Both the position numbers and the translations under genes were made by a program. A stretch of DNA of 64,000 bases from Minisyncoccota bacterium (lineage in GTDB: Bacteria > Patescibacteriota > Minisyncoccia > Phycocordibacterales > UBA5272). Position 1 is the stretch's first letter, and every line of letters begins with the position of its first letter. Shown one piece after another: positions 37,443-48,168 of the stretch. Below the pieces are notes generated by a model that saw only the letters and a program-made list of their open reading frames with translations, made no database searches and was not told the DNA's origin. Location of the stretch: the NCBI GenBank assembly GCA_018061825.1, contig JAGOTK010000002.1, positions 100-64,099 on the forward strand, in the 5' to 3' direction.

Positions 37443-38720
37443 ATGAATAAAAAAAATAACCTTTTTTATTATTTCAAGATTTTATTTTTTTTAGTTTTTG
37501 TATTTTTAATATTTTATATATCTTACTTTTCAGTGGAAAATTTATTTTTTACAAAAAGATTTTTTAATAATTTAAATGAGGTACAAAAAGTAGAAATATC
37601 TACTTCTACAAATACAGTATTAGAAAATGCGACTACATCATCAAATGTTTTTCATATAAGTACTCCAAAATCTGTGAGAGGCGTATATGTGTCTTCTTGG
37701 GTTATAGGCACACCTAGTGTTAGAAATAACTTTTTTAAAGTTTTTGATAACACAAAACTAAACGCAGTACTTATAGACGTAAAAGATTCATCAGGAGTTA
37801 TAACTTTCGATATAAAAGATCCAATATTAAAAGAGGAGTCTATAATAGAAAACAGAATAAGAGATATAGACTATGTGATAGATTATTTTCATAAAAAAAA
37901 TATTTATGTAATAGGAAGAATAGCTGTGTTTCAAGATCCAGGAGCTGTAAAAAAATTTCCTGAAAGGGCTATAAAAAATAAAAAGACTAATCTGGCATGG
38001 AAAGATTCAAAAGGGCTTTCATGGATAGATGCTGGAAATAAAGAACAGTGGAAATATGCAGAAGATGTAGCTAGTTATGTATATAGTATTGGCTTTGATG
38101 AGGTAAATTTTGATTATATAAGGTTTCCTTCTGATGGGATTTTAAGAGATATGTATCTCCCAAATTCTGAAGGCAAAAATAAGGTAGAGATTGTAAATAG
38201 TTTTTTTTCTTATATAGGTAATGCTATGAAAGAAAAAAATATTCCCACTTCTGCAGATATTTTTGGTCAGACTACTTCAGATGATTCTGGGATGGGTATA
38301 GGACAAACTATTCAAGCAGCATTAAGGTCTTTTGATTATGTGTCACCTATGAGTTATCCTTCACATTATGTTAAAGATTATAATGGTATAAAAAATCCAG
38401 ATGCGAGTCCGTATCAGACTATTCATTTTAGTTATCGAGATGCTATGACAAGAATAGATAAGATGGCAAAAGAAGACGCGACAATTGAGACAAAAATTGG
38501 TACTACTACAAGTTTAGTAATAGATGATATAAAGTACAAATCACAAAAAGATTTATATATAAAAAAATTAAGACCATTCTTACAAGACTTTTCACTACAT
38601 GTTGTTTATGGTAAAAAAGAAATCCTTGATCAAATAAGAGGAATAGAGGAATATGGTATAGATTCATATTTGTTTTGGAATTCTGCTAGCAGATATACAA
38701 AAGAAGCTTATACAAATTAA
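37443..38720 (+). CDS. Putative secreted glycoside-hydrolase-like TIM-barrel protein (COG1306/GHL10-type)
   Basis: RGVYVSSWVIGTP…LNAVLIDVKDSSGVITFD pattern. Confidence 0.4.
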   Translation: MNKKNNLFYYFKILFFLVFVFLIFYISYFSVENLFFTKRFFNNLNEVQKVEISTSTNTVLENATTSSNVFHISTPKSVRGVYVSSWVIGTPSVRNNFFKVFDNTKLNAVLIDVKDSSGVITFDIKDPILKEESIIENRIRDIDYVIDYFHKKNIYVIGRIAVFQDPGAVKKFPERAIKNKKTNLAWKDSKGLSWIDAGNKEQWKYAEDVASYVYSIGFDEVNFDYIRFPSDGILRDMYLPNSEGKNKVEIVNSFFSYIGNAMKEKNIPTSADIFGQTTSDDSGMGIGQTIQAALRSFDYVSPMSYPSHYVKDYNGIKNPDASPYQTIHFSYRDAMTRIDKMAKEDATIETKIGTTTSLVIDDIKYKSQKDLYIKKLRPFLQDFSLHVVYGKKEILDQIRGIEEYGIDSYLFWNSASRYTKEAYTN

Positions 38721-38757
38721 AACCCCTAATCTTTAAATCAAAGAGTAAGGGGTTTTT
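38720..38757. terminator. Bidirectional terminator hairpin (aaacccctaatcttt/aaagagtaaggggttt)
   Basis: Long inverted repeat with G/C core plus T-run. Confidence 0.55.
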
Positions 38758-38776
38758 AAAAAGTAAAGTAAATAAT

Positions 38777-39043
38777 TTAATAGCCTATACTATATCTGTT
38801 AAGGGTAAATATTGTATCTACAATAGCAAGAATACCAAAAGAGTCTTTACGTAAGATATATTCAGACATATTAATATTTTCTAAATAAATAGTATCACCA
38901 CGTTTTTTTATTATTGTGGAGTTTTTGAATGTTACAAATTTATTTTCTTTAATTAAAAAACATTTAATATTTATTTTATTTCCACAGCTTGTAAAGGCAA
39001 GAGATAAAAATAAAAGAACGGCTAATAGAGATAACTTTCTCAT
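38777..39043 (-). CDS. Small lipoprotein (signal peptide + lipobox FTSC)
   Basis: MRKLSLLAVLLFLSLAFTSCGNK. Confidence 0.45.
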   Translation of the reverse strand: MRKLSLLAVLLFLSLAFTSCGNKINIKCFLIKENKFVTFKNSTIIKKRGDTIYLENINMSEYILRKDSFGILAIVDTIFTLNRYSIGY

Positions 39044-39136
39044 TTTAATGGGTTTTTTGTTTTAAAAATATTTTTAAGCTATTTTTATGCTAACAAATTA
39101 AAATATTATGTCAAGTTGTGTTATATTTTTAAAAAT

Positions 39137-40630
39137 ATGAATAATTTTGAATTTAAAATTATAAAAAAATCAACAGAAGCACCAATGGCAAGAATTGGAA
39201 TAATACACACAGCTCATGGAGATATTGAGACTCCTGCATTTATTCCTGTAGGCACAAAGGCTACTGTTAAAAGTATTCTTCCTGAAGACTTTGTTAAATA
39301 TGTAAAATCTGATGCTTTACTTGCAAATACTTATCATCTTTATTTGGAGCCTGGAAATGAGATTGTAAAAAAGCACGGTGGATTTCAAAAAATGATGAAT
39401 TATAATGGGCCATCTTTTACAGATTCTGGAGGATTTCAAGTATTTTCACTTGGTGCTGCGATGGGTGTTGGAGTTTCTAAAATCGCAAAACGTGAAGATC
39501 TTACAAATGAAAATATAGATAAAAATCTAGCTAATAATTTAGAAATAAAAAGTATTTTTTCTAAATTAAAAGATTTTTTTATTATAAACAAAATTCTTTT
39601 TATAGAAATTTTGATTGTTTTGTATGTAGGATTTCTTGTAAGATTTTTAGGGGAAGACATGAACCTATTAGTTAATCTTATAATTATGTTTTTCACTTTT
39701 GTGTTTATAGAGATTTTATTTTTCAAAAAATATAGAATTAAAAATAATTTAGAATTATTAAATTTTAAAAACATTGATAATCAAGAACAGAAATCTCTTG
39801 TAAAAATCTCAGATGAAGGTGTAGAGTTTAGAAGTATAATAGATGGTAGTAAACATTTTTTTACACCAGAAAAAAGTATGGAAATTCAACATGATCTTGG
39901 TGCTGATATATTTTTTGCGTTTGATGAATGTACAAGTCCACTTGCAAATAAAGAATATCAAATAAAATCTTTAAATAGGACACATGAGTGGGCTAAGAGA
40001 TCATTGTTTCACCATCAAAAGCTTGGAAAAAGTGAAGCTACAGGAAAAATGCAAGCCCTATTTGCTGTGGTGCAAGGTGGATCATTTGATGACTTGAGAA
40101 AAGAAAGTGCAAAAACTTTAGGTGAAATGAATGTGGAAATAAATGGAGAAAGAAAGTATTTTGATGGATTTGGAATTGGTGGAAGTTTTACAAAAGAAGA
40201 TATGGCAAAGACGGTAAAAATCTCTACAGAAAACCTTCCTGAAAATAAACCAAGACATCTGCTAGGTATAGGTGAAATAGAAGATTTATTTTTAGGAGTG
40301 GAGTATGGTATAGATACTTTTGATTGTGTCTCTCCTACTAGACTTGCCAGAAATGGATCTCTTTATACAAAAAAAGGAAGGATAAATATTTTTAATAGTA
40401 AATATAAAAATGATTTTTCTCCTGTGTGTGACGATATAGACTGTTATGCACATCAATATACAAAATCTTACTTAGCACATTTATTTAGAAGTAAAGAAAT
40501 GGTCGCCGCTACTATTGCTTCAATACATAATTTGCACTTTATCGTACATTTAGTAAAAGATATTCGTAAGTCAATAATAGATGATAGATTTTTTGAATTC
40601 AAAAAAGAAGTTTTAGAAAATTATAAATAA
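39137..40630 (+). CDS. tgt: Queuine tRNA-ribosyltransferase (tRNA-guanine transglycosylase) carrying a ~125-aa hydrophobic insertion
   Basis: TAHGDIETPAFIPVGT, FTDSGGFQVFSLG, FAFDECT, zinc site CxC…C…H near the C-terminus; the insertion runs 39454-39808 between FSLG and ISDEGVEFRS. Confidence 0.75.
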   Translation: MNNFEFKIIKKSTEAPMARIGIIHTAHGDIETPAFIPVGTKATVKSILPEDFVKYVKSDALLANTYHLYLEPGNEIVKKHGGFQKMMNYNGPSFTDSGGFQVFSLGAAMGVGVSKIAKREDLTNENIDKNLANNLEIKSIFSKLKDFFIINKILFIEILIVLYVGFLVRFLGEDMNLLVNLIIMFFTFVFIEILFFKKYRIKNNLELLNFKNIDNQEQKSLVKISDEGVEFRSIIDGSKHFFTPEKSMEIQHDLGADIFFAFDECTSPLANKEYQIKSLNRTHEWAKRSLFHHQKLGKSEATGKMQALFAVVQGGSFDDLRKESAKTLGEMNVEINGERKYFDGFGIGGSFTKEDMAKTVKISTENLPENKPRHLLGIGEIEDLFLGVEYGIDTFDCVSPTRLARNGSLYTKKGRINIFNSKYKNDFSPVCDDIDCYAHQYTKSYLAHLFRSKEMVAATIASIHNLHFIVHLVKDIRKSIIDDRFFEFKKEVLENYK

Positions 40631-40702
40631 TTTTGTGGATAAGTATTTAATATTAAAAATATTCGCATGATATAATAAATAAAATTATTAAGAAATTAAA
40701 TT

Positions 40703-41146
40703 ATGTTAAAAATTATTTTGTTAAGTTTCATTGGTGCTTTTATAAGTATGCTGATAACTACAATATGGCATTCTTCTAAATTGTTTGGAAAAGTACGCAT
40801 GGACTATCATGCAAAGCAAGCACTTTCTTTTGAGGAGCATATAAATAAAATCCAAGAAAAAAAGCCAGAGCTAATGAAAATTTACTTGATACAATTTTTA
40901 TTTTCTTTTATAACAAGCTTTTTTCTCGCTGTAGTGATGAAAGGAGGCTATGGATTTATTTATAGTAAATATTTATTTATTTTTATAGGTCTTGTTTGGA
41001 TTTCTTTTACTGTTCCAGCTATAGGTACAGATGTGCTATGGAGTGATGCAAAAGGAAAAATAGCTTTTAAAAAGTTTTTGTCTGAGATATTTTCAAGCCT
41101 TTTGACTTTTATCGTCATAATATATGTTTATATTTTGATTTTATAA
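40703..41146 (+). CDS. Hypothetical membrane protein
   Basis: Four TM helices. Confidence 0.4.
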   Translation: MLKIILLSFIGAFISMLITTIWHSSKLFGKVRMDYHAKQALSFEEHINKIQEKKPELMKIYLIQFLFSFITSFFLAVVMKGGYGFIYSKYLFIFIGLVWISFTVPAIGTDVLWSDAKGKIAFKKFLSEIFSSLLTFIVIIYVYILIL

Positions 41147-41289
41147 TTTTAGTTTATATAAAACAGATATAAATTTAAAAAATAAAAGATACTTATTGAT
41201 AAGTGTCTTTTATTTTTTAAATACTTTATTTGACATATTGTTCTATTTTATGTATTATTTAAACATTGTTCATTTAAAAAAAATAAATT

Positions 41290-41748
41290 ATGCAAAGCAA
41301 AAAAATTCACAATTTTAACAAAGAGTCTGGGTTAGAATTTTTTTTTAACGAAAAGAATAGAGAGTTAGAAATATTTTTTACAGGCACATATACTAAAGAG
41401 TGTATGTTAGTAGTAAATAATTATTCTTTTTTGGAAGCCGTAAAACAATTTCTACAAGATCCAAATTTTAAATCTATAAACAAAAATGGAAACATTTTAG
41501 ACTTTGGTGATTTAGAATTTCGATATTTTGGAGAAAAGGTTATGATTTTAACTAAAGAAAAACTTCAGGAAAAATATTATTTCCACAAAAAAGTTTATTT
41601 AAGTTCAGAAAATGATTTGATTTTATGGCTAATCGCCACAGCTGAAAATGATTTTTCTCTTAGAAGAACAAAAAAAGAACTCTCAAAGGGGAACGTAAAA
41701 TTTAAAGATTGGAAATTAGATCATTTAGTAAAAATTGGTACAAATTAA
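41290..41748 (+). CDS. Hypothetical protein (152 aa)
   Basis: ORF followed by the terminator at about 41768-41800. Confidence 0.35.
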   Translation: MQSKKIHNFNKESGLEFFFNEKNRELEIFFTGTYTKECMLVVNNYSFLEAVKQFLQDPNFKSINKNGNILDFGDLEFRYFGEKVMILTKEKLQEKYYFHKKVYLSSENDLILWLIATAENDFSLRRTKKELSKGNVKFKDWKLDHLVKIGTN

Positions 41749-48035: not shown

Positions 48036-48119
48036 GCGTCGGTGGTAGAGTGGTCAAATACAACAGACTGTAAATCTGTCGCCCATCGGGCTACGTTGGT
48101 TCAAATCCAACCCGGCGCA
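48036..48119 (+). tRNA. tRNA-Tyr (anticodon GTA), type II with long variable arm, discriminator A, no encoded CCA
   Basis: Acceptor stem gcgtcgg/ccggcgc (one G-U), anticodon stem acaga/tctgt with loop ctGTAaa, variable arm cgcccatcgggctacg, T-arm gttgg-ttcaaat-ccaac. Confidence 0.85.
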
Positions 48120-48168
48120 CATTTTGTTTTTTAATAATATTAGAATATTTTTCTATATTTAACCAATC

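Follow-up and report, generated by a model that had tools for sequence, protein, structure and literature searches.

Textbooks present the tRNA-guanine transglycosylase Tgt, a drug target, as a soluble enzyme, and the bacterial enzymes of E. coli and Z. mobilis with which it is compared here are known as soluble proteins. The eukaryotic TGT (QTRT1/QTRT2), a heterodimer with queuine as its substrate, reportedly associates with the mitochondrial outer membrane, and would thus be a Tgt-family enzyme that salvages an imported base at a membrane surface, but this association is said to be peripheral and to involve no transmembrane insert. Hairpins in which a short loop joins two apolar helices and positive charges face the cytoplasm are found in proteins inserted by YidC such as M13 procoat and subunit c of the F-ATPase, the latter with a carboxylate within a helix. 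Small in-frame insertions are found in Rickettsia, where the palindromic elements (RPEs) are reportedly selfish insertions in protein genes; they measure about 100-150 bp, sit within surface loops of proteins that are conserved, may be there in one genome and missing in a close relative, and occur in many copies in many unrelated genes. The subject of this report is a tgt gene in a stretch of 64,000 nucleotides from contig JAGOTK010000002.1 of a Minisyncoccota bacterium (the whole stretch is called the window below). Unlike the YidC-inserted hairpins, which are free-standing small proteins, the hydrophobic hairpin encoded here forms part of a loop in a soluble enzyme of 45 kDa, and the explanation that we favour, with a probability of roughly 0.55, is that it serves as an accessory membrane tether of an otherwise cytoplasmic Tgt.

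The gene is a genuine but divergent tgt of a Paceibacteria bacterium (Patescibacteria, or candidate phyla radiation, CPR). Its product matches Pfam PF01702 with an E value of 1.8e-125 and the NCBIfam equivalog TIGR00430 with 418.7 bits (cut-off 306.75), and a phmmer comparison with PDB sequences gives two blocks that align with the enzymes of E. coli and Z. mobilis, residues 14-106 and 220/222-492. An AlphaFold2 (AF2) model of the protein, hereafter the query, was made from a 48-sequence alignment (A2) and has a pTM of 0.76; its core superimposes on Z. mobilis TGT (1q2r, chain A) with a target-normalised TM-score of 0.91 and an rmsd of 2.3 Å, and shows the TIM barrel and the C-terminal subdomain of Tgt. 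The catalytic aspartates D102, D156 and D280 of the Z. mobilis enzyme correspond to D96 (DSGG), D263 (FDEC) and D396 (FDCV) in the query and are invariant in all 48 aligned sequences. An initial annotation, made from the letters of this DNA, had described both the catalytic halves and the zinc site as intact, and for the former this holds, but the zinc site has departed from the usual CxCxxC...H and reads C-x4-C-x2-H...H (VCDDIDCYAH...IHNL, that is C-x4-C-Y-A-H...H). Within the clade either H or N serves as third ligand, and many Paceibacteria Tgt have no cysteine at all at this site, Ser and Trp having replaced both (S...W-Y-T-H); judging from their sequences these probably bind no zinc.

The substrate pocket differs as well. 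All 48 aligned Paceibacteria sequences carry GIGGSFTK[ED]D where GGLAVGE would be the preQ1 type and GG[LS][AS]G the queuine salvage type (PMC11570991), and the query's GGSFTKE thus fits neither. The substrate base is for this reason uncertain, and the base that these Paceibacteria enzymes put in may, from the motif, differ from the known ones. As for the tRNA, the only tRNA gene of the window is a tRNA-Tyr(GTA) at 48036-48120, with anticodon GUA, which is a canonical type of Tgt substrate.

Between the two aligned blocks, in the turn after the FQVFSLG strand, G106 and I224 of the query are equivalent to G108 and I113 of E. coli, so that the query has 117 residues in place of the 4 of E. coli. 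The insert thus comes to about 113 residues net; it has no counterpart in the E. coli or Z. mobilis enzyme, and when searched alone it matches no Pfam family. The initial annotation recognised this insertion against the four residues of E. coli and located it correctly to within a codon, but its size of about 125 residues was an overestimate, and the insert is not one single insertion either. In the alignments it is built of three layers. The first is an expansion of 28-48 residues, starting LG.A.G.GVSKIA, which is present at this site in nearly all readable Paceibacteria-type Tgt and makes up about a third of the insert; G106, A108, G112, K115 and A117 are invariant in alignment A2. The second layer consists of low-complexity linkers rich in K and N that are specific to one subclade, in which the insert measures 56-80 residues. 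The linker on the N-terminal side varies in length among relatives, and its AF2 confidence is low (pLDDT block means 48-62). Only a part of this subclade has the third layer, a helical hairpin of roughly 50 residues with two hydrophobic helices. The query thus shares the expansion, the pocket and the degenerate zinc site with other Paceibacteria and Patescibacteria Tgt, whereas most of these have no hydrophobic segment, and the hairpin is confined to about 17 clusters or species of one subclade. The window is very AT-rich (GC about 0.27), and GC falls to 0.19 at the insert compared with about 0.32 in the rest of the gene.

Both hydrophobic strings that the initial annotation had singled out are present and have scores typical of membrane segments. 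The 19-residue Kyte-Doolittle means are 2.54 for helix 1 and 2.62 for helix 2, and the summed Hessa free energies are -0.36 and -1.67. These values fall within the range of the obvious membrane and signal-anchor segments encoded in the window, among them N-terminal anchors and polytopic proteins. Of the 62 open reading frames (ORFs) of the window, about 40 never reach a Hessa sum below +5 or a Kyte-Doolittle mean above 1.7, and five borderline ones (+1.1 to +4.0, and 1.8-2.1) still fall short of the Tgt segments. Since most ORFs score this far from them, the AT-rich composition is not the cause of the hydrophobicity, and no ORF of the window other than tgt has a hydrophobic pair internal to an otherwise soluble enzyme. 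In the AF2 model the insert has four consecutive helices, among them one from 152 to 171 (pLDDT about 75-80) and one from 177 to 211, separated by a turn of five residues, with an overall pLDDT of about 67-80. Helix 2 has 20 apolar-dominated residues and helix 1 has 16-19.

The charges around the helices follow the positive-inside pattern in all eleven full hairpins. The ten residues before helix 1 hold 3-4 Lys or Arg and the eight residues after helix 2 hold 3-5 (3-5 for a flank overall), while the loop region has one Arg and one or two acidic residues and a net charge of zero or below. Going by these charges, a membrane-inserted hairpin would have both its ends inside (N-in/C-in). The number of hydrophobic segments agrees with this, as it is two or zero, and never one, in about 190 classifiable relatives, which is what is expected if the barrel must stay on one side of the membrane; with an even number of helices both halves of the barrel are on the same side. 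A membrane-tethered Tgt had been proposed as one of two possibilities in the initial annotation, and it has become the better supported of them with the even number of helices, the Lys/Arg flanks, the short acidic loop, the helix-turn-helix of the AF2 model and the purifying selection described below, although it is still a deduction.

There is another way to read a translated hairpin. It could pack on the barrel, or pair with the hairpin of the second subunit, as Tgt acts as a homodimer (PMC3660597), and make up, outside any membrane, a bundle of four helices by which the dimer is stabilised or regulated. The conserved E157, R169, D174, N176 and E/D192 could then make polar contacts between helices, and both the run of four helices in the AF2 model and the shortness of helix 1 for a bilayer span would be easily accommodated. 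The helices are however uniformly apolar and not amphipathic, with Kyte-Doolittle values above 2.5 like those of the membrane segments of the window, the charges on the flanks and in the loop are arranged as in a membrane protein, and long linkers of low confidence part the hairpin from the barrel. We consider such a soluble bundle unlikely, if still a serious competitor to the membrane tether.

To see how common the hairpin is, 120 homologues from a protein collection and 80 GTDB species representatives were surveyed, all of them Patescibacteria and mostly labelled Paceibacteria or Nomurabacteria. It is present in at least 17 independent Paceibacteria assemblies: the full hairpin in the query and ten of the homologues (P0001-7, P0011, P0015 and P0016), and the hairpin also in six species representatives (L004-L007, L010 and L015) and in four Tgt fragments (P0121, P0122, P0124 and P0125). 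A word-index search with the insert and its flanks gave mostly short fragments, of which only P0124 and P0125 were new carriers; the same kind of search with the hairpin profile returned one fragment and missed known carriers, and we do not count it as a negative. With HMMER, 1.84 billion representative proteins were searched exhaustively; no hairpin turned up outside Tgt, only two Tgt fragments and one spurious repeat protein, and hence no sequence similarity to the YidC-inserted hairpin proteins. Nor did tblastn and blastn find a second copy in the 64 kb of the window, where the hairpin matched only itself.

Relatives that lack the hairpin (among P0008-P0045) have a motif of 11 residues at the matching position of the loop, amphipathic and flanked by Lys, such as IINFFKSLFKK, ILSFIKNLFAKK or FLQFIKNIFKK. 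With a hydrophobic moment of 0.72-0.76 it resembles the membrane-targeting helices of the MinD/FtsA type, which are C-terminal whereas the Tgt motifs are internal; a MinD helix gave a lower moment of 0.38 in the identical calculation. The motif is compatible with a residual peripheral affinity for the membrane in the forms without a hairpin.

The eleven hairpins align without gaps at 41-81% identity, and K152, E157, R169, D174, N176 and L194-F195-F196 are invariant among them. Pairwise dN/dS is 0.10-0.48 in the hairpin at a dS of about 1, and 0.05-0.10 in the core; in most pairs the hairpin has 2-5 times the ratio of the core, and in the closest pair the two are roughly equal. The hairpin is thus translated, and purifying selection acts on it, though less strictly than on the core. 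Similarity of hairpin and core, compared to tell vertical from lateral inheritance, is uncorrelated (Spearman -0.06), but core identity spans a range (77-91%) too narrow for this to be informative. An ORF on the opposite strand at 39436-39774 was also considered, and as selection acts in the sense frame it is discarded as a chance ORF in AT-rich DNA.

The distribution of the hairpin over the tree is patchy. In a neighbour-joining tree of the core columns with 200 bootstrap replicates the carriers never formed one clade (0/200), and clades that mix carriers with non-carriers are well supported: P0006 and its fellow carriers with P0020 and P0027 (100%), P0002 and its fellows with P0008, P0009 and P0014 (100%, and 96% once the query is added), and P0011 and its fellows with P0043 (82%). 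P0006, which has the hairpin, and P0027, which does not, share 98.6% core identity. Their loci (L001 and L003) are syntenic, with upstream DNA that is 94.6% identical, and within tgt their DNA alignment shows one clean 105-bp indel. It is bounded by imperfect direct repeats of 21 nt, TTTCTCTTCATAGAAATTTTA and TTTTTCTTTATAGATATTTTA, of which the short allele keeps one copy. The window has homologous repeats (family D3) of 19 nt and 84% identity, spaced by exactly 105 nt, and the repeats encode FIEI/FIDI motifs at the start of helix 1 and at the end of helix 2.

What is left at the site differs among the relatives without a hairpin, for instance FFFIDIFFFKK, LLNSLFSFFKK and FLNFLLNVIMK, which argues for independent deletions from an ancestor with a hairpin and not for repeated insertions. 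Only the L003/L009 type is demonstrably a clean deletion; the other hairpin-less loops (L008, L011, L012, L013 and L018) are too diverged for a convincing DNA alignment with the hairpin. These comparisons make the hairpin an accessory feature that was lost on several occasions, at least one of them a clean deletion of 105 bp. The initial annotation had offered an in-frame inserted element as its second possibility, and a discrete, patchy unit of 105 bp bounded by repeats is indeed there, but not a mobile element that has been gained, for it is single-copy in the window, is restricted to Tgt, and behaves as an ancestral feature that has been lost several times.

A second direct repeat also brackets the hairpin, at 39533-39556 and 39743-39766 (AATAATTTAGAA...; 24 nt, 79% identity, 210 nt apart), and encodes NNLEIKSI and NNLELLNF. 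Its first copy lies within a segment that only the query and P0001 have and that is a gap in the other aligned sequences, which suggests further growth of the loop by a slippage type of event.

One could then argue that the hairpin is a tolerated insertion without function in a permissive loop, either the footprint of a selfish element or low-complexity growth driven by AT bias, which comes and goes by repeat slippage and is hydrophobic only by accident, in contact with the membrane or not. A discrete unit of 105 bp with direct repeats of 19-21 nt at its bounds, absent from genomes that are otherwise nearly identical in this gene, is what such a process would leave, and the low local GC, the raised dN/dS and an RNA fold slightly more stable than that of shuffled controls (z = -2.0) point the same way. 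Like an RPE the unit is short, in frame, in a surface loop, and present or absent between close relatives. Unlike an RPE it is single-copy in 64 kb, absent from all other protein families in the search above, and its protein sequence is subject to purifying selection. All copies are homologous and go back to one origin; at a saturating dS the dN/dS ratio stays well below 1, four positions with charged or polar residues do not vary, no variant has just one hydrophobic helix, and the lineage-specific remnants speak for repeated loss instead of repeated insertion. The selection data, together with a single-copy unit in one family, weaken the idea of a functionless insert, and we find it unlikely. 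A multi-copy element of the RPE kind was rejected on the copy number in the window and on the profile search of the 1.84 billion representatives, in which the hairpin was met in Tgt only. The inverted repeats at the site are 71-84% complementary in AT-rich DNA, and the clear structural feature is the direct repeat spaced by 105 nt.

That the insert is an artefact of assembly or annotation, or an intein or intron that is removed to leave a normal soluble Tgt, is highly improbable: its exact position in a loop and its distinct composition are essentially all that favours it, while the hairpin, sought in related genomes as the initial annotation had advised, is shared by many independent assemblies (NCBI, JGI, ENA and Logan), which excludes misassembly, the reading frame is kept with dN/dS below 1, 35-113 residues are far too few for an intein and the junction residues are lacking, and the insert gave no Pfam match, intein and Hint domains included, nor did positions 38700-41300 give an Rfam match better than E = 0.3.

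The turn after the FQVFSLG strand has grown into a long excursion with the hairpin at its tip, two helices joined by an acidic turn of 5-8 residues with Lys/Arg clusters and flexible K/N-rich linkers outside them. As a membrane tether the hairpin would enter the cytoplasmic membrane so that its two ends face inward and the acidic loop outward, and the intact TIM barrel would stay in the cytoplasm, held by flexible linkers of about 45 and about 25 residues. The hairpin arose once within a Paceibacteria subclade, is kept by purifying selection where it is present, and has been deleted several times. Patescibacteria are generally unable to make such cofactors and need to import them, and since they must do so, a place at the membrane could favour the capture of a scavenged base; a tether would, speculatively, set the enzyme beside the site of uptake of a 7-deazaguanine base. 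Among the immediate neighbours of tgt that were searched there is no queuosine gene (the other ORFs of the window were not annotated for this). Membrane insertion, topology and any link to salvage are what we infer from sequence and model.

Several observations weigh against a tether. Between K152 and R169 the apolar residues of helix 1 number just 16, the helix contains a Glu, and its Hessa sum is borderline. Both helices contain conserved acidic or Asn residues that are costly in a bilayer unless they are paired, and the confidence of the AF2 model is moderate in the hairpin and below a pLDDT of 50 in the linkers. The constraint on the hairpin is, in most pairs, looser than that on the core, as the dN/dS ratios above show. 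The frequent loss, also between genomes about 99% identical in the Tgt core, means that a tether is unnecessary for the basic function of Tgt. A conserved transporter was not seen next to the gene, and the genes downstream differ between the window (DUF1761) and L001 (DUF1653 and PGA_cap). We know of no membrane-bound bacterial Tgt, and literature searches for one, or for a Tgt of Patescibacteria, gave nothing relevant.

A bolder version of the tether can be imagined, in which the Tgt of this subclade would be an integral membrane enzyme with two hairpins per homodimer, four helices in all, with E157 and E/D192 as conserved carboxylates within the membrane. It would dock at the route by which a scavenged 7-deazaguanine base is taken up, or even contribute to it, and accept through its GGSFTKE pocket a base that is perhaps not preQ1, so that modification is coupled to salvage at the membrane of an episymbiont and the 105-bp unit is a natural switch that sets whether a strain has the tethered or the soluble form. 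Taken as a whole this is a long shot, and to our knowledge no membrane-anchored bacterial tRNA-modification enzyme of this kind has been described.

Table 1. Parts of the tgt gene and of its insert, in positions of the window
Feature	Position	Strand	Remarks
tgt coding sequence	39137..40630	+	497 aa from ATG; frame open from TTG at 39116
Whole insert relative to E. coli/Z. mobilis Tgt, aa 107-219	39455..39793	+	PDB alignment
Conserved base of the insert, aa 107-130, AAMGVGVSKIAKREDLTNENIDK	39455..39526	+	Present, as LG.A.G.GVSKIATS..., in nearly every Paceibacteria-type Tgt examined
K/N-rich N-side linker, aa 131-152, with basic end SKLKDFFIINK	39527..39592	+	Cytoplasmic side if the topology holds
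Hydrophobic helix 1, aa 153-171, ILFIEILIVLYVGFLVRFL	39593..39649	+	Invariant E157, R169
Short acidic turn, aa 172-176, GEDMN	39650..39664	+	Invariant D174, N176
Hydrophobic helix 2, aa 177-196, LLVNLIIMFFTFVFIEILFF	39665..39724	+	Hydropathy, AF2
C-side basic flank KKYRIKNN with the linker that returns to the barrel, aa 197-219	39725..39793	+	K/R counts
Direct repeat, left copy, TTCTTTTTATAGAAATTTT	39594..39612	+	Encodes LFIEI; repeat family D3
Direct repeat, right copy, TTGTGTTTATAGAGATTTT	39699..39717	+	Encodes VFIEI; repeat family D3
105-nt (35-codon) unit	39593..39697	+	Equivalent to the segment missing in hairpin-less P0018-P0035, L003 and L009; protein and DNA alignments
Substrate-pocket motif GGSFTKE, aa 348-354	40178-40198		
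Non-canonical zinc site, aa 431-439, CDDIDCYAH	40427-40453		Together with the IHNL histidine near aa 464

The surroundings of the gene vary. In L001 and L003 a gene for a transketolase C-terminal domain (Pfam Transketolase_C) abuts tgt, and in the window two genes lie between them: one at 37443-38720 for a putative glycosyl hydrolase (DUF4015) with an N-terminal anchor, and a small ORF on the minus strand, 38777-39043, whose start MRKLSLLAVLLFLSLAFTSCG resembles a lipoprotein signal. Directly downstream of tgt, at 40703-41146, is the gene for the DUF1761 protein, which has 147 residues and three hydrophobic segments; this pairing is not conserved in L001.

The survey of relatives also turned up an unusual use of a codon. 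An invariant Trp of Tgt (W285 in the query) is encoded by TGA in L084 (943-2385), in L085 and in L007 (3001-4449), and the frame continues to a normal stop. The next gene in L084 (2413-3024) encodes a DUF2238 protein and has five in-frame TGA codons; read as Trp they give a full-length Pfam match of 151.3 bits, compared with 136.6 bits when read as Gly. Among 118 short Tgt fragments, eight break off immediately ahead of the equivalent of W285. Some relatives within Paceibacteria, in two lineages, thus appear from their sequences to read UGA as Trp. Recent papers place UGA-to-Trp in only four bacterial phyla, and within Patescibacteria only UGA-to-Gly. In the window the standard code applies, and TGG codons number 138; the 62 likely genes end with TAA (49), TAG (11) or TGA (2), and a rare TGA stop is the usual precondition for the reassignment of UGA that is seen in the relatives.

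The physiological weight of the hairpin is probably modest, since many lineages can dispense with it. The allele pairs with and without it, about 99% identical in the core, are nonetheless natural controls for studies of localisation or activity. If the tether is real, it shows how a TIM barrel can accept a two-helix anchor in one of its loops and stay intact, and it would suggest that ultra-small, auxotrophic CPR cells organise the salvage of bases and the modification of tRNA at the membrane.

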